NCBI GenBank assembly: GCA_019247845.1 | Contig: JAFBAL010000029.1 | Span: 1,215-65,214, forward strand | Length of the DNA stretch: 64,000 nucleotides | Direction: 5' to 3' | Source: Alphaproteobacteria bacterium | GTDB lineage: Bacteria; Pseudomonadota; Alphaproteobacteria; Micropepsales; Micropepsaceae | Part shown: positions 11,017 through 46,851 of the stretch, in pieces | Numbering within the stretch: position 1 is the stretch's first letter | Layout: each line of letters opens with the position of its first letter | Program-made: the position numbers and the translations under genes | Notes under the pieces: model-generated | Database searches by the model: none | What the model was told of the DNA's origin: nothing | The model's input: the letters and a program-made list of their open reading frames with translations, nothing else

Positions 11017-13425
11017 ATGACCCCTTCCGACAGCCCGACGAGCCAGCAGGATGGCGGGCCCGATGCCAACGAGATGTCCCCGGCGGAGCGCAAGGAAGCA
11101 CGCCAGGCGGCCGCCAAGGTCCGCGCCACCGTCAACGGCTTCATCGCCAGCGCCGACCGCTATCGCGACGCGCGCGACTGGGCCGGCGCGCGCAGCGGCT
11201 ACGAGGCCGTGCTCGCCCTCGACCCAAACCTGAACCACATCTGGGTCCAACTGGGGCATGCCCGCAAGGAAGGCGGCGACCACGAGGCCGCCGAGATCGC
11301 CTATAGCGAGGCCATCAAGATCAAGCCCGAGGATGCCGACGCCCATCTCCAGCTCGGCCACCTCTACAAGATCCGCGGCATGCTGCCCCAGGCGCTCGAA
11401 TCCTATTCGCGGGCGCTGGCGATCAACCCCGATTTCGCCGATGCCCAGCGCGAGGTCGAGACGCTTCGCGCCAAGATCGCGCCGGGGACGCTTTCGCCGC
11501 AGAAGAAGTCGGTCTCGGGCCGCTTCCCGCGCGTCGCCAAGCCGTCGGACGGCAAGACGCTGCATATCGTCTTCGACGTCAGCGACCTGATGCATTATTT
11601 CCGCAATGCGCGGCTGCCTACCGGCATCCAGCGCGTGCAGATCGAGGTCATCCGCAACGCCATCGAGAGCTATGCCGAAGGCGTCGCCTTCTCGATCGTC
11701 TGCTTCACCAAGGAAACGGATTTCTGGGTCGAGATCCCGCAATCCCTGTTCAACACGTTGTGCCGCCGCGCCGTGGTCGGCGGCGACCACCTGGCGCCGG
11801 AGTGGATCGGGCTTTTGTCCCAGCTCGACGCGGTGCTGGGCAGCCGCAACTACTTCGCCTTCGTGCGCGGCAGCGTGCTGCTCAACCTCGGTACCTCGTG
11901 GTGGCTGCAGAACTACTTCCTGAACGTGCGCATGGCCAAGAGCCTGTTCGGGATCAAATACGTGCCCTTCGTGCACGATTTCATCCCGGTGATGGCGCCG
12001 GAGCATTGCGTCGCCGATCTCCGGCAGGACTTCATCACCTGGGCGATCGGCGCCTTCGATCACGCCGATTTCTTCCTGGTCAATTCCAAGGCGACCTTGG
12101 CCGACCTCCAGACCGTGGGCAGGAAGCTCGGCTATCCGCCGCGCGACGCCGCGGTGATCACCCTCGATGCCGATTTCCGCAAGACGCTATCGCCGGAGGC
12201 CATCGCCGACGAGGTGGGCGACCCGGTCGAATACTTGAACTCGCTCGGGCTCGAGGAGGGCAAGTACGTGCTCTTCGTCTCGACCATCGAATCGCGCAAG
12301 AACCACATCGCGGCCTTCTCGGTCTGGCTCAAGCTGATCAAGAAGCACGGCATGAAGAACGTGCCCAAGCTCGTATGCGTCGGCAACAACGGCTGGCTGA
12401 ACGACGCCACCTTCGCCAGGCTCAACGCCAGCGACCTGCTGCAGGAGCAGGTGCTGATGCTGTCGAAGATCTCCGACGCGGCGCTGGCCGTGCTCTACCA
12501 GAACAGCGTCTGCACGCTCTATCCGAGCTCGTATGAGGGCTGGGGCCTGCCGGTGACCGAGGCCTTGTGCTACGGCAAGGTGCCGATCGTCTCCAACGTC
12601 TCGTCGCTGCCGGAAGCCGGCGGACCGTTCGCGGAATATTTCGACGTCGAGTCCGAGAAGGACCTGATGGATGCGGTCGAGCGCGTCGTCTACGACGACA
12701 AGTACCGCCAGCGCCGCGAACAGAAGATCCAGGCCGAGTTCAGCCCTCGCGGCTGGAACCAGATCAGCCAGCAGGTCGTGGGCCAGCTCAAGGACTGGGC
12801 CAAGGCGCATGCCGGCGATTCCGCGCCCGAGCTGCCGGCCAGCGCCCACGGCATCTGGCCGCTGCCGGCCGACATGGGCACGCTGCACGCGCTGACCGCC
12901 AATACCAGCAACATCCTGTGGGCCGGCCTGAAGAGCGGCGAGGTCTACCGCAACGGCCCGGGCTGGTGGTGGCCCGAGCACTGGGGCTGCTGGATCAAGA
13001 ACACCGGCCCGTCGCAGATCGCCTTCGTGCTGAAGGACGTGGCGAACCAGGCGATCGAGGTCTTCGTGGGCGTGCGCGGCGTACAGGGCCGTGCCTCGGT
13101 CGCGACGTTGAAGAGCGAAGGCGCGCGCACGGCCACCGTGGCGATGACCCACGAGCAGGACAAGGTAATGGCGATGAGCCTTCCGGCGCAGCCGGAGGAC
13201 GAGCGGCTGGTGGTGATCAACGTCTCGAGCGACGTGGCGGCGGATTTCCGCGCCACCACCGGCGGCGTGGACTTCCGCTCCTGCGGCGTCGGCGTGCGCT
13301 GGGTCTATGCCTGCCGCGAAGACGACGTGCTGGCGCGCATGAAGATGGTCGAGGCGATCGCGCTCGGCGACTTCGAGCGGCTGAAGCGCCAGCCGCCGGA
13401 ATCGGACTTCTTCCTTCACACGTGA
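11017..13425 (+). CDS. TPR-containing GT4-type glycosyltransferase with extra C-terminal domain
   Basis: N-terminal TPRs (WVQLGHARKE, HLQLGHLYKI), LPTGIQRVQ, FVHDFIP, VSTIESRKNH, YPSSYEGWGLPVTEAL (EX7E). Confidence 0.88.
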   Translation: MTPSDSPTSQQDGGPDANEMSPAERKEARQAAAKVRATVNGFIASADRYRDARDWAGARSGYEAVLALDPNLNHIWVQLGHARKEGGDHEAAEIAYSEAIKIKPEDADAHLQLGHLYKIRGMLPQALESYSRALAINPDFADAQREVETLRAKIAPGTLSPQKKSVSGRFPRVAKPSDGKTLHIVFDVSDLMHYFRNARLPTGIQRVQIEVIRNAIESYAEGVAFSIVCFTKETDFWVEIPQSLFNTLCRRAVVGGDHLAPEWIGLLSQLDAVLGSRNYFAFVRGSVLLNLGTSWWLQNYFLNVRMAKSLFGIKYVPFVHDFIPVMAPEHCVADLRQDFITWAIGAFDHADFFLVNSKATLADLQTVGRKLGYPPRDAAVITLDADFRKTLSPEAIADEVGDPVEYLNSLGLEEGKYVLFVSTIESRKNHIAAFSVWLKLIKKHGMKNVPKLVCVGNNGWLNDATFARLNASDLLQEQVLMLSKISDAALAVLYQNSVCTLYPSSYEGWGLPVTEALCYGKVPIVSNVSSLPEAGGPFAEYFDVESEKDLMDAVERVVYDDKYRQRREQKIQAEFSPRGWNQISQQVVGQLKDWAKAHAGDSAPELPASAHGIWPLPADMGTLHALTANTSNILWAGLKSGEVYRNGPGWWWPEHWGCWIKNTGPSQIAFVLKDVANQAIEVFVGVRGVQGRASVATLKSEGARTATVAMTHEQDKVMAMSLPAQPEDERLVVINVSSDVAADFRATTGGVDFRSCGVGVRWVYACREDDVLARMKMVEAIALGDFERLKRQPPESDFFLHT

Positions 13426-39506: not shown

Positions 39507-41445
39507 ATGTTCGATCGGCGTTCCTTCCTGGCCGGCGCAAGCGCGACAGCGTTGTGCGGGCCCGCGCTTGGCCAGCCCCCGTTGGGGGTGCCTGCGCCCG
39601 GGCGGCGGTACGCGTTCGATGCGGCGGCGTTCCCGCGTTACGACCTCGACGTCGCCATCGACCGCGCCGCGCAGACGCTGGCCGCCGAGGCCGCGATCAC
39701 GGTGCCGCGTCCCCTGGTTCGGGACGGCATGATCGTCTTCGCGCTCGCCGAGGACGCGAAGGACCTCGTGGTGAAGGTCGACGGCGCGGCCGCGCCGCCC
39801 ACGCCGGTGAAAGACCCGAACACGCCTGCCGCGCTGCGCCGCTGGCAGGTCGCCGCGGCCGCGGGCGAGGGCGCCGTCCGCGTCGAGATCTCGTATCGCC
39901 TGGTCGCAGCCATCGGCCCGGTCTTCGCGATCAAGCCCGACGGCGCCGTCGCCTCGGGCACCGCTTTCGCCTGGTATCCGCAGATCGAGCGCGCCGACCA
40001 TGTCCGGCTCGAAGGCACCGGCCGAGTGCGCATCGTCTCCGGCGCCGACGTCGTCGTCGCGGGCGGCGTTGCAGGTCCGGACGGGGCGGTCACGGTCGAC
40101 GAGCCGCGCTATTTCGAGTTCGCCGCCGCGCCCTATCGCATCGTCGACAGCCGCAAAGGCCGCGCGCGGCTCTATCTGCTGCGCGATCATCCGAATACGG
40201 CAGTTTTCGCCGAACGCCTCGACCGGCTGATCGCCGTGCTGGAGCGCCATTTCGGCCCGCTGCCCTCGGCGCGCTTCGACCTCGCCGAGGCGCCGCCCCT
40301 GGCCGCGCGCCAAGGCGGCTTCGACGGCGCCTCGCTCGACGGCTTCATGCTCGCGGTCGGCTTCTATTTCGACCAGCCGTTCAACACCGCATTCTTCGGT
40401 CACGAAATATCGCATCAGTGGTGGGGCGGGCTGGTGCGGCGCGTGGGGCTCGACGGCGTCTACATGTTGGACGAATGCCTGGCGCAATACGGCTCCATGC
40501 TGGCGGTCGAGGATATCGACGGCGAGCACGCGGCTGAGATCTATCGCCGCCGCGGCTTCCCCGGCTACTACGCCGAATATGGCGGGTTCATGTACCTGGC
40601 CCGCACGCTCCAGGGCATCGACGCGCCGATGACCGCGTTGCCGGCGTCCGACGGCTTCATCTGCCGTCGCGTGGTGAACGCCAAGGGCATGCTGGTGTGG
40701 CGCATGCTGGGCGACATGATCGGCCGCGAGCGGCTGTCCACCTTCCTGCGAGGCTTCGTGCGCCGGCACGCTTACAGGCGCGCCAGCCTCGCCGATCTGG
40801 TGACGGAGCTGCGCGCGCTGTTGGGCGGCGACGCATGGTTCGTCGACGACTGGTTCGACAAGGCGGGCGCGGTCGACCTGTCGCTGGAATGGAAGCAGAC
40901 GGGCCGCATGCTGTCGCTGACCGTCCGTCAGACGGCGATGCCCAAGCGGGTGCGCGTGCCGGTCGACATCCGCATGCGCGGCCGCCGCCCCCTGACCAAG
41001 ACGATCTTCATCGACGGTCCGGCGACCACGGTGGCGATGGCGGTCGCCGGGCATGTCTCCGACGTGGCGCTGGATCCGCAATACCGCGTGCTGCGCTGGA
41101 CGCCCGAATTCCACGCCCAAGCCGAGGCGATCGCGCCTTACGTCAAAGGCGATATCGCGCTGAACTACGGCAAGACGGCTGCGGCCCGCGCGATATTCGA
41201 GGCGGCGCTGCCTTCCGCCGGCGGCGAGCTTCAGGCGCTTCTCGAGCGCGGGCTCGGCGACGCGGATGCGAACGACGCCAGGAATGGGGATGCGGCCATC
41301 CATTACGGCAAGGCCTTGGCGCTCGCGCCCGACCACTGGCAGGTCCCGGAAGTGTGGCGGGCGCTGGCCGATGCCTATCGCGCGCTGGATGACGAAACGA
41401 AGGCCCTTGCGGCCAACGAAAGCGGCGCGCGCGCCATTGCCCGGC

Positions 41446-41459
<14 letters not shown>
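39507..41459 (+). CDS. Tat-exported M1-like (gluzincin) metallopeptidase with C-terminal TPR-like helices
   Basis: MFDRRSFL twin-arginine signal; HEISHQWWG with downstream LDE; KGMLVWRML; [10 protein letters not shown]. Confidence 0.8.
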
Positions 41460-42324
<865 letters not shown>

Positions 42325-42333
42325 GGTGGCTCT

Positions 42334-42696
42334 CTATGGATGGATCTTGGGCGCTTTCCTGGTCTCGTCGACCAGGGCACGGACGGCGTCGCCGGTGAGC
42401 TTGGAAAGCTCGGCATAGGCCGCGTCGGTATATTTGCGGTCTCCCTTGCCGCGGCCGGTCATGTCGTAGCCGTCGCCGGTATAGGTGAGATCGAATTCAA
42501 AGGGCGCCGCGGGGCTTCCGTCCTTGGCGACGAAGACCAGGCTCTTGCCGTCGCTGCAGCTCGCCACGAGCCACGGCGTGCCGCCATAGGTCTTGGTCAC
42601 CGGACCGGTGGCGCAGCTTTCCGGCGCCTGCGGGTCGAGCGCGAGCGCGGGCGCCGCCGCCGTCAGAAGCAAGAGTGCCGTAAGCCTGCCGATCAT
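42334..42696 (-). CDS. Exported hypothetical protein with one Cys pair
   Basis: Signal peptide [19 protein letters not shown]; C-x17-C ([20 protein letters not shown] region). Confidence 0.75.
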
Positions 42697-42704
42697 CCCG
42701 TCCT

Positions 42705-43280
42705 CTAGCGCATGTTGCGGACGATGCCGTCCAACGTCTTCTGATACGTCTGCATCATGTTGGTGAGCATGTCGTAGGCCTGGTTGCGCTTGTTCACCAG
42801 CTGCTGCAGCCGGATCATGTCGAGCTGCGAGTCTGCGTTCAGCTTGTCGATCTCGCCCTTGATCCGGGCGCGCTCGCCGTCGTCGGCCGCTTTCTCCAGT
42901 TCCGATACCAGCTGCTTCAGCTGCGTGTTGCGCGCCGTCATCTGGGCGATCTGCTGCTCGAGCAGCGTCTGCTCGCGCCCGGCGGAGAGCACCAGCATCG
43001 CGGCCATCACCTCATCGGGGCTGAGCTTGCCGGTATCGAGGCAGCTGGTCGGCTGCGGACAGGCTTCGCGCACGTCGTCCTTGGCGCCCGATTCCGACGC
43101 GTCGCCGATCGCCAGGCGGTTGGCCTCGACGCCCACGAAGCGCTTGCCGTGCTTGTTCAGGTGGCGCGACAGGGTGGCGGCGACGCGCGCGGCGTCCGCG
43201 TCGGCTGCCGTGGTCTCGGCGAGCGCTGGCGTGGCGATCGTCAGCGCCGCAGCGAAAGAGATTGCGAGCTTGCCCATCAT
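42705..43280 (-). CDS. Exported coiled-coil protein with Bsp22-like (T3SS tip/filament) C-terminal motif
   Basis: Signal peptide [21 protein letters not shown]; C-terminus [41 protein letters not shown]. The resemblance is from my recollection of Bsp22, not from a search. Confidence 0.7.
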
Positions 43281-43289
43281 GGTCCCCAC

Positions 43290-43768
43290 CTAGAGCTTGC
43301 GGTTGTCGAGCTGCTGGCTGTTCCCGATCTCGTCCAGGATGCGCCGGACGTCGTCTTCCATGCCCTTGATGGCGTCCTGCAGCTCGCCTTGCCGCTCGTG
43401 CATCCGCTGCAGGTCGCGATCCTTGGCCTCGCGATCCTTGTCGCGCTCCATGCCGCCGATCCGTCCGTCGAGAAGATGCCTAGCCCTGTCCATCGCCAGC
43501 AGCGACATGCCGGTCCGCGCGTCGTCGTCGGGGAGGTCGCGCAACCGAAAGCACGCATCCGTTACCCGGCAGGCGCCGCGAAGGTCGTCCTTGAGTCCCG
43601 AGATCGAGACGTCGCCGGTGCCGACCAGGCCGCCTTCGTGCTCGAGGGTCTGCTTGCCGTGCTCGGTCATGTGCTGCTTCAGCAGCGCGACGAGGTCGTC
43701 TTGCGCAGAGGCGAGCGCGGGCGAGACGCCCGCAAGAATGACCGAGACCAGTGCGGCAGGCAGCAGTT

Positions 43769-43772
<4 letters not shown>
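43290..43772 (-). CDS. Exported paralog of 42705-43280 lacking the terminal motif (160 aa)
   Basis: ATGA overlap with the sucC stop; signal peptide; shared blocks (L)xxHxxxHGK, KDDxRxACxxxxxC and an amphipathic helix. Confidence 0.75.
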
Positions 43773-44932
<1,160 letters not shown>

Positions 44933-45930: not shown

Positions 45931-46851
45931 TTAGTAGCCGCCGCTGTCGCCGACGCCGCCGCTGTTGAGCGCATTGCCGTCGAGCTCGACCTCGCGCGCC
46001 GTGTTGCGCTCCATGTCGGCGCAGACCCGCGTGCGGAAGGTGAAGAACATGTCGCCCGTGCCGTATTTGCGCAGATTCGTGCGCTCGGTGCAGTCGACCA
46101 CGCTCATCGCCGGCGCGCATTTCAGCATGCCGTCCTTGAAGTGGCGCACCGCCTCGCCCTCGCCGCATTGCAGGATCACGCCCTTGGAATAGAGGCCGGC
46201 CATGCCCTGGTCGGACTGGACCACGTCGCCCATCACGATCTTCAGGCGCGCGCCCGCGATGCAGCGCGCGACCTCGCCCTCATAGGACGACTCGATCCAG
46301 GTGTCGGCGGTCATATGCGTGGCCGGGAACTCGCGGCCGTCGGCGGCGATGCACACCGCATGGATCGACTTGACCACGGTCGCATCCTGCATCTCGCAAT
46401 GCCCGCGCGCCACAGCGACCGCGCCGATGTCGGAATTGTTGTGGATGTTGACGTATTCGTAGCTGCCGCCGCCATAGACGATGACCTGCGCGCCGGCTTG
46501 CGCATTCGCCTCGGCCATCGCCTGCGCGAAGGCGGCGACCTGCACGTTGATCTTGTTGATCACCACCACCTTGTTGATGTTGATGTTCTTGTTGAGGTTC
46601 AGGTTCTTGTTGATGTTGATGTTCTTGTTGATGATGATCGGATGATCGTGGCACCCGCCGCCGCCGCCGCCATAGCCGCCGTTCACGCTGCCGAAGCCGC
46701 CGCCGCTGCCCGCGACGCTGATGCCTGGCGCGCCGCCGCCGGTATAGAATCCGCCCGCAGAGGCCGGCGTGGCCGCGGCCGCCACCAGTGCCGCGCCCGC
46801 GAGCGCGCTAACCACAAACCTGAAAGAGATCGGCGACATGCTTGGCTCCAT
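45931..46851 (-). CDS. Secreted protein: Gly-rich linker, Asn-rich hexapeptide repeats, Cys-rich C-terminal domain
   Basis: Signal peptide ending ..AATPASA; GGGFG..GGGGGGC; INKNININKNLNLNKNININK; 8 Cys. Start may be 46851 or 46839. Confidence 0.8.
   Translation of the reverse strand: MEPSMSPISFRFVVSALAGAALVAAAATPASAGGFYTGGGAPGISVAGSGGGFGSVNGGYGGGGGGCHDHPIIINKNININKNLNLNKNININKVVVINKINVQVAAFAQAMAEANAQAGAQVIVYGGGSYEYVNIHNNSDIGAVAVARGHCEMQDATVVKSIHAVCIAADGREFPATHMTADTWIESSYEGEVARCIAGARLKIVMGDVVQSDQGMAGLYSKGVILQCGEGEAVRHFKDGMLKCAPAMSVVDCTERTNLRKYGTGDMFFTFRTRVCADMERNTAREVELDGNALNSGGVGDSGGY
46570..46632 (-). repeat. 3.5 tandem 18-bp units encoding N-(I/L)-N-(I/L)-N-K
   Basis: Plus strand reads CTTGTTGATGTTGATGTT / CTTGTTGAGGTTCAGGTT / CTTGTTGATGTTGATGTT / CTTGTTGAT. 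Confidence 0.9.

Follow-up and report, generated by a model that had tools for sequence, protein, structure and literature searches.

The 64,000-nucleotide stretch of DNA analysed here (the window; contig JAFBAL010000029.1, from an alphaproteobacterium of the Micropepsaceae) carries on its minus strand, between the succinyl-CoA ligase genes sucC and sucD, the gene for a small protein with three parts: a Sec-type signal peptide, an N-terminal domain with two cysteines (the N-domain) and a long C-terminal helical hairpin. Needle and tip-filament subunits are regarded as dedicated substrates of type III secretion systems (T3SS), which pass through the machine in an unfolded state and form polymers at its tip. 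The hairpin of the target protein is related to proteins which fill, in T3SS loci, the slot of the Bordetella tip-filament protein Bsp22, and here it is found behind a Sec signal, in a housekeeping operon. Loci and proteins used for comparison are cited by our own L and P numbers, and all coordinates are collected in Table 1 unless given in the text.

The target gene and its product

The open reading frame (ORF) of the target looks like a real gene, because its GC content at third and second codon positions (GC3 0.92, GC2 0.42) follows the same pattern as the window's other genes and because the ratio of nonsynonymous to synonymous substitutions (dN/dS) against the closest relative is 0.24. 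Residues are numbered according to the 190-residue form (P0001), whose gene call starts at 43277. A preliminary description of this DNA had listed a signal peptide, two cysteines, a long helix and a distinctive C-terminal stretch of 48 residues (42705-42851, including the stop codon), all of which are present in the ORF. The signal consists of a positively charged n-region and a hydrophobic core free of charges, followed by an A-x-A site (TPALA followed by ET), without a lipobox cysteine or a twin-arginine motif, and its n/h/c layout and (P)ALA motif are kept in all 10 orthologs and in the paralogs. The two cysteines, C73 and C79, lie inside a C-P-x-P-x-S-C motif, and the hairpin ends in …DGIVRNMR.

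The AlphaFold2 (AF2) model of the target, made from a 64-sequence alignment, has a mean predicted local distance difference test score (pLDDT) of 79.9. Residues 1-21 are disordered (pLDDT <50), the region 24-79, which contains both cysteines, has helices at 24-37, 42-56, 62-72 and 76-79, and the hairpin is a long helix-turn-helix (H87-129 and H133-189, 43 and 57 residues) with pLDDT 80-97. Searches of the PDB by sequence, with the target protein and with a profile of its hairpin, returned coiled-coil noise only. The N-domain had no match in Pfam or NCBIfam, and the target matched neither the EspA family (Pfam, NCBIfam and PDB searches) nor the LTXXQ/CpxP-type models of Spy and CpxP (Pfam and NCBIfam). 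In a search for a phage or defence origin, a PHROGs scan of the target was empty and PADLOC gave only one coiled-coil match (E 0.003), so that neither origin gained support.

The hairpin family and its place in injectisome loci

A single-sequence phmmer search with the target against 5.8 billion proteins gave 18 matches, which fall into three classes. Class (a) consists of ten orthologs of 183-197 amino acids and 46-84% identity, which match the target in signal peptide, N-domain and hairpin; one of the ten, P0010, is an extended form of 324 amino acids. Class (b) proteins (P0012-14; 151-152 amino acids, one of them from a Rhizomicrobium metagenome-assembled genome, MAG) have the same signal and N-domain followed by another hairpin. 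Those of class (c), of 136-235 amino acids, lack a signal peptide and have in common with the target only the C-terminal ~105 residues (41-47% identity, E 2e-18 to 1e-11). One class (c) protein, P0017, which matches the C-terminal 55% of the target at 45% identity (E 5e-14), is located in a T3SS locus.

When a profile of the hairpin (alignment A1) was scored against 1.84 billion cluster representatives, 1254 were found at E <= 1e-3 and 461 at E <= 1e-10, with the top 150 at E about 1e-39 to 1e-18. The target's long helix, which had been likened to the N-terminal helix of Bsp22, turns out in alignment A1 to be the conserved first helix of this family (helix A). Between Sec-type and T3SS-type members, conservation is strongest in helix B and at the very end of the protein (N-M-R). 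In alignment A2 the residues N188, M189 and R190 are nearly invariant. The NKRN motif varies just as little, and the common motif, SQxDMIxLQxLxNKRNxA…GNMR, is non-heptad and extends up to the final residue. No significant match was obtained for ten diverse members in Pfam and NCBIfam searches, and the source names of the family are almost all 'hypothetical protein', including those of members inside annotated T3SS loci. A Bsp22-like family with more than 1200 representatives at 50% identity is missing from both model collections, which is a gap in annotation. A scan of contigs with patterns derived from the hairpin alignment, which were too narrow, found six MAG loci (deltaproteobacterial, Sorangium and gammaproteobacterial), none of them from Rhizomicrobium or Bordetella.

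The N-domain can be aligned in 16 proteins, among them the SctF-like paralogs described below and the product of the ORF upstream of the target. An origin of the N-domain from the N-terminal region of T3SS-type relatives was considered and rejected, since its hidden Markov model (HMM) was silent among 243 other family proteins, T3SS-locus members included, apart from a sole match to P0010, which is a Sec-type ortholog.

Hairpin members occupy the tip-protein slot in five T3SS loci, namely L004, L008, L009, L011 and a plasmid of Sinorhizobium garamanticum. The gene for P0017 is followed directly by a small ORF, a tetratricopeptide repeat (TPR) class II chaperone, SseC/YopB-like and YopD-like translocators, an HrpJ/TyeA gatekeeper, SycN and YscX. 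P0035, from Thalassospira lucentensis, and P0091 (hairpin-profile E 8.5e-28 and 8.4e-20) are divergent from the gatekeeper gene and are followed by chaperones, translocators, SctI, SctJ, SctK, SctL, SctN and SctO; on the other side of these loci lie YscX and SctV and, in L009, additionally SctD, YscE and SctF. In L008 and L009 the genes are colinear with those of the Bordetella bsc locus, the order of which is BscF-E-D-BcrD-BscY-X-Orf4-BopN / Bsp22-Btc22-BcrH1-BopD-BopB-…-BscI-J-K-L-N-O, the slot of Bsp22 preceding its chaperone gene, Btc22 (PMC7498569). In the deltaproteobacterial MAG L011 and on the S. garamanticum plasmid (NZ_CP120375.1) the hairpin gene is likewise found with T3SS genes. 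The Bsp22-like gene of the plasmid (L022 11911-12450) is labelled 'hypothetical protein' by the Prokaryotic Genome Annotation Pipeline (PGAP). Tandem Bsp22-like genes were seen within two of the T3SS loci (L004 1-114 and 128-823; L008 8001-8504 and 8534-9148), and multiplication of bsp22 in tandem copies has been described for Achromobacter (bioRxiv 10.1101/2025.09.16.676505).

Bsp22 has a long N-terminal helix (I26-A74), a variable middle and a C-terminal helix (Y144-M204), and polymerises spontaneously (PMC12607632, PMC7498569). In signal-less members of the family the median start of helix A is residue 21, and helix B reaches the last residue, a layout which agrees with the published description of Bsp22. 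By positional orthology and architecture, and not by direct alignment to Bsp22, the class (c) proteins are occupants of the injectisome tip slot of the Bsp22 class; Bordetella Bsp22 itself (WP_003820049.1) was not among the 120 listed of 403 matches. Phmmer, profile and synteny together uphold the central claim of the preliminary description, that a Sec-type signal is joined to a C-terminal hairpin of tip-filament kind, in that this hairpin is homologous to proteins in the Bsp22 slot of bsc-like loci. It had also been called a T3SS/flagellin-like D0 module; the T3SS part of that name stands, through homology to tip-slot proteins, and a link to flagellin D0 was not demonstrated. The string NKRNEAFEVMTN, which the preliminary description had ascribed to Bsp22, is nearer to the T3SS-type consensus NKRNEAFDVMTN than to the window's own sequence, a fit which suggests that it belongs to some member of the family.

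Relation to needle subunits

The other injectisome filament module which appears in this clade is that of the needle subunit SctF (PF09392). The target itself scores 11.8 bits against this model (E 0.28; with residues 121-190 covering all 71 model positions), below the gathering cutoff of 29.4. Sub-threshold matches at E <= 0.1, the best at 2.8e-6 and always reaching the end of the model, were found in 14/64 family members, more than for any other Pfam family, and a remote kinship of the hairpin family with needle subunits may plausibly exist. The members also show many weak Pfam matches to unrelated coiled-coil families, as would be expected if the likeness to T3SS proteins were a chance coiled-coil resemblance without homology. 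That explanation, to which we give next to no credence, would leave unaccounted for the prominence of PF09392 and the constant extension of its matches to the model end, and it is ruled out by E values of 1e-11 to 1e-39 together with the non-heptad motif.

Class (b) proteins reach 43-52 bits against PF09392 (E 4e-11 to 6e-14), well over the same cutoff. One of them, P0013, matches Yersinia YscF in the PDB (2p58_B; E 1e-4), and the genuine SctF of the T3SS locus L009 recovers class (b) proteins by tblastn. In L005 the tip-like and the SctF-like gene are adjacent. The Rhizomicrobium SctF-like gene bears the NCBI name of a T3SS needle subunit, despite its position between sucC and sucD. Judging from sequence, and going beyond the preliminary description, one signal peptide and N-domain is joined in this clade to two injectisome filament modules, one needle-like and one tip-like.

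Sec signals in the family and the lack of type III genes nearby

In order to recognise Sec-like N-termini across the family, we used a simple rule that calls for a basic residue followed by an uncharged 11-mer with a mean hydrophobicity >= 1.6. Such N-termini are present in 33/153 top family representatives, so the Sec signal, first taken for an oddity of the target gene, is no such thing. Many of the Sec-type members are ~152-residue 'secreted proteins' of Paenibacillus and Saccharibacillus (e.g. P0238 and P0247; profile E about 1e-21), and dozens of species of these genera have a protein of this Sec-plus-hairpin form. A Paenibacillus example (L010 8001-8459, GCA_003287275.1) is an orphan amid unrelated genes, with no secretion genes nearby. 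Monoderm bacteria such as Paenibacillus are not known to have an injectisome, and for this reason their hairpin proteins must work without one. Other Sec-like members bear varied N-terminal additions, as in a DM9-repeat protein from an alphaproteobacterial MAG. Members in T3SS loci, on the other hand, never show a Sec-like N-terminus; their helix A begins around residue 21, and therefore the Sec signal would replace a short leader for type III secretion (T3S). This predicted swap of signals is recurrent in the family and not unique to the window.

The earlier statement that no injectisome gene lies in the window proved correct, as tblastn with 24 T3SS proteins against its 64 kb found the target itself only and no machinery gene, the one marginal match being a non-T3SS match of the TPR chaperone query (11257-11517, E 0.002, 26% identity). 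Within the DNA around the sucC-sucD islands of relatives, at most ±10 kb, there was no T3SS machinery gene either. These results bear on the idea that the target is an orphan T3SS substrate with a hydrophobic N-terminus unused by Sec, exported by an injectisome whose genes lie in another part of the genome. For this genome our analysis covered the window, and relatives have flagellar genes nearby (such as FliX), both of which give this idea some room. We nevertheless hold it to be very improbable: members from T3SS loci never carry such an N-terminus, equivalent Sec-type members exist in monoderm Paenibacillus, no T3SS gene was present in the window or within ±10 kb of the gene in L001 and L003, and the target combines a conserved signal peptide, an A-x-A site and a two-cysteine domain typical of oxidising compartments.

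The sucC-sucD island and its selection

On the minus strand of the window the gene order is sucC-orf160-target-orf120-sucD, orf160 and orf120 being named for the lengths of their products. The ATG of orf160 overlaps the sucC stop codon (ATGA, a 4-nucleotide overlap), and the gaps among the small ORFs are 8-12 nucleotides. A scan found no sigma-70-like promoter and no terminator-like site between sucC and sucD, and the only minus-strand terminator-like hairpin lies after sucD (41436-41423). Because of this tight packing and the lack of internal promoter- or terminator-like sites, the five genes look like one operon. All three small proteins start with a Sec-type signal, none with a lipobox or a twin-arginine motif.

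The product of orf160, a gene whose kinship with the target had escaped the preliminary description, aligns with the full-length proteins P0178 and P0051 from the N-domain through helix A into the beginning of helix B, and ends ~40 residues early at …QLDNRKL. The same end is kept in L021, against which orf160 has a dN/dS of 0.37, and for this reason we regard it as a maintained truncated form and not as a fresh pseudogene; this short paralog is possibly a cap or regulator. For orf120 there are 161 homologs, all of about 120 amino acids and restricted to the clade, some of them in Rhizomicrobium MAGs. Its AF2 model has 5 strands and 2 helices (pLDDT 77.6), with no significant fold match in a Foldseek search of the PDB and no Pfam match for the protein.

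Placement between sucC and sucD, which the preliminary description had proposed to look for in relatives, does recur there, in Rhizomicrobium-like loci. We read the content of the island in twelve related sucC-sucD loci (Table 1). The 120-residue protein is a near-constant element of the island, with or without needle-like genes, and L020 alone lacks it. In the island the needle-like and tip-like genes are accessory; the labile content of the island therefore points to an accessory function. Two further observations concern its other genes. An Rce1-like (CPBP) intramembrane protease gene is found in L001 (10829-11500), L003 (10955-11626), L019 (4360-5052) and L020 (10372-11058) and is absent from the window. 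In L020, from an Alphaproteobacteria MAG, a 110-residue protein (P0176, 10001-10333) directly after sucC consists of the hairpin only, without signal peptide, N-domain or 120-residue neighbour, and is either a decayed copy or a cytoplasmic form.

Substitution rates were computed against the closest relative, L021. The target is under purifying selection, with a dN/dS of 0.24 over the whole gene, 0.91 in the signal peptide, 0.16 in the N-domain, which is its most constrained part, and 0.21 in the hairpin. The high value of the signal peptide is expected, because only the composition of this segment is constrained. For orf120 (first 89 codons) the value is 0.22. It could be argued that sucC-sucD is a hotspot for drifting fragments of T3SS genes and that the target is a functionless, decaying passenger there; islands do vary, as seen from the shortened paralog of the window, from the copy in L020 that has only the hairpin, and from L019, where the needle-like gene is lacking. 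Against such decay stand the low dN/dS of the whole gene and of the N-domain, the ten full-length orthologs (46-84% identity) with signal peptides and C-termini intact, and the fact that the precise end of even the truncated paralog is preserved in L021, so that we find this explanation improbable.

Table 1 Features of the window and of related loci.
Feature	Position (strand)	Description
Target ORF	42705..43289 (-)	From GTG; ATG starts at 43280 and 43277; stop codon 42705-42707
Target gene	42705..43280 (-)	190/191 amino acids, Sec signal and C-terminal Bsp22-family hairpin; from ORF reading, orthologs, dN/dS and GC3
Signal peptide	43218..43277 (-)	Residues 1-20; predicted cleavage between ALA and ET
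N-domain	43023..43217 (-)	Residues 21-85; 65 amino acids, four short helices, Cys73/Cys79; clade-specific
Helical hairpin	42708..43022 (-)	Residues 86-190; 105 amino acids: helix A 87-129, short turn, helix B 133-189
sucC	43769..44932 (-)	Succinyl-CoA ligase beta subunit; first operon gene; near-identical to L001 sucC (ATP-grasp_2, Ligase_CoA)
orf160	43290..43772 (-)	Upstream 160-residue paralog; signal peptide, variant N-domain (with C), helix A
orf120	42334..42696 (-)	Downstream 120-residue protein; signal peptide, two Cys
sucD	41446..42324 (-)	Succinyl-CoA ligase alpha subunit; last operon gene; near-identical to L001 sucD
SctF-like gene, L005	1279-1737	Sec signal and the target's N-domain; PF09392 E 3e-13
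SctF-like gene, L001	10001-10456	Sec signal and the target's N-domain; PF09392 E 4e-11
Island, L001/L002 (Rhizomicrobium MAGs)		SctF-like, 120-residue protein, Rce1-like protease
Island, L003		Tip-like, 120-residue protein, Rce1-like protease
Island, L005-7		Unrelated 159-residue protein, tip-like, SctF-like, 121-residue protein
Island, L017/L018		Unrelated 162-residue protein, 122-residue protein
Island, L019		120-residue protein and Rce1-like protease only
Island, L020		Signal-less 110-residue hairpin, Rce1-like protease, 45-residue ORF
Island, L021		Same three genes as the window

A model for the target protein

The reading that we favour, tentatively and at somewhat less than even chances, is that the target is a Sec-exported envelope protein which self-associates through a hairpin derived from tip filaments, with no type III machine. 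It would be made together with succinyl-CoA ligase from a single sucC-orf160-target-orf120-sucD transcript, its signal peptide would be cleaved between ALA and ET upon export, and the N-domain would fold in the periplasm, probably with a disulfide between Cys73 and Cys79. The hairpin, which may descend from a tip-filament subunit of the bsc/ysc type (Bsp22 class, remotely related to SctF), would then drive self-association into an oligomer or filament with the N-domains outside, and the final location would be the periplasm or the surface. In needle proteins the C-terminal residues are needed for polymerisation. The near-invariance of N-M-R and NKRN, together with the long hairpin of the AF2 model, argues for an assembly surface that has been retained, and the fusion of the N-domain to a true SctF domain in related islands, together with the low dN/dS, argues for a system rather than an accident.

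Several results weigh against this model. The link between the target and Bsp22 itself is one of synteny and architecture, and an hhalign comparison of alignment A1 with a small needle alignment was weak (probability 39%, in a shifted register). Foldseek found for the AF2 model of the target, in the PDB, generic coiled coils only (HlyD, BAR domains, IpaB) and nothing significant. Self-assembly is a step that we infer, the AF2 model being that of a monomer, and it is not obvious what a filament would do in a Gram-negative periplasm, with no route of export across the outer membrane evident. The island is labile, with the needle-like gene absent from L019, replaced by an unrelated 162-residue protein in L017 and reduced to the signal-less 110-residue hairpin in L020. 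As to RNA evidence, the stretch is present in two DNA metagenome runs (root and rock), and no RNA run was listed.

The main rival of the model is a protein of the same ancestry that forms no polymer, that is, a soluble or anchored periplasmic coiled-coil protein (for instance an adaptor, a spacer or a helical stress protein like Spy/CpxP) whose hairpin serves only to form dimers or to bind another protein, which could be the truncated paralog encoded upstream or the 120-residue neighbour. Helical hairpins are common periplasmic folds, the structural neighbours of the target are only generic coiled coils, one distant member of the family has an LTXXQ match (PF07813), and orf160, which lacks the terminal helix and is under selection all the same, fits a partner in a hetero-dimer as well as it fits a filament cap. 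However, the target has no Spy/CpxP match, and the conservation shared between Sec-type and T3SS-type members is highest at the C-terminus and in helix B, the region which in needle proteins drives polymerisation. We therefore consider a non-polymerising role possible, if rather unlikely.

Comparison with known filament proteins

Self-association through the hairpin, as we propose it for the target, can be compared with several known systems. Bsp22 of Bordetella and the Asp proteins of Achromobacter likewise have a conserved first helix, a long last helix which runs to the C-terminus and a variable connector. In comparison with Bsp22, the target has a Sec signal peptide in place of the T3S leader of ~20 residues, an extra two-cysteine N-domain and a connector shrunk to a tight turn, and its gene belongs to the sucCD operon, in a neighbourhood that lacks genes for a chaperone (Btc22), for translocators and for the machinery. 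SctF needles (YscF, MxiH and PrgI; PF09392) have a similar helix-turn-helix and a C-terminal …I-x-x-N/K-x-R/M end like that of the target family, but the helices of the target are longer (43 and 57 residues against about 25 and 35) and it stays below the PF09392 cutoff. EspA of enteropathogenic E. coli is the functional counterpart of Bsp22; as a tip protein, it polymerises via a coiled coil of its terminal helices (PMC12607632, PMC7498569). Unlike the target, EspA is exported by a T3SS and depends on a chaperone, and no sequence match between the two was found in any search. The proteins of Paenibacillus and Saccharibacillus resemble the target in having a Sec signal followed by the same hairpin, away from secretion systems, and differ from it in their monoderm hosts, in the absence of the two-cysteine N-domain and in having no linkage to sucCD. 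Our search of the literature gave no paper that deals with Sec-signal relatives of Bsp22 or SctF, or with T3SS in Rhizomicrobium.

The interest of these observations lies more in the pattern across the family than in the single target gene. A conserved, selected family joins a T3SS filament module to a Sec signal in the housekeeping operon of a root and soil alphaproteobacterium, and the same pairing with Sec is seen in a sister form with a genuine SctF domain and in orphan genes of Gram-positive bacteria, which raises the questions of whether such a module can assemble without the machine and what role polymers of this kind would have in the envelope. A broader proposal, which we advance with considerable doubt, is that Micropepsales-type alphaproteobacteria and, independently, other lineages, Gram-positive Paenibacillus among them, use Sec-exported subunits to build needle- or tip-like helical filaments in the absence of a type III machine, some sucC-sucD islands being two-component systems in which a Sec-SctF-like and a Sec-Bsp22-like protein share the N-terminal surface domain and a truncated paralog acts as cap or regulator. 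If this were true, the filament subunits of injectisomes could be exapted as autonomous extracytoplasmic polymers or, read in reverse, the needle/tip module would derive from an older Sec-dependent family of self-assembling proteins.

Genes flanking the operon

The flanks of the island in the window are housekeeping genes and are syntenic with a Rhizomicrobium MAG (rhomboid, PAS_5, GMC oxidoreductase, PAP2, acyltransferase, sucA and sucB). Between sucD and the acyltransferase gene lies a gene for a 650-residue M1-peptidase-like protein (39507-41459, plus strand), which is absent from that place in the Rhizomicrobium MAG locus L001. Another gene (45931-46851, minus strand) encodes a 306-residue protein that has a signal peptide, a stretch rich in Gly and an Asn/Ile/Lys repeat (…NKNININKNLNLNKNININK…), with no Pfam match at E <= 1e-5; the L001 gene at the equivalent position carries DUF8217.

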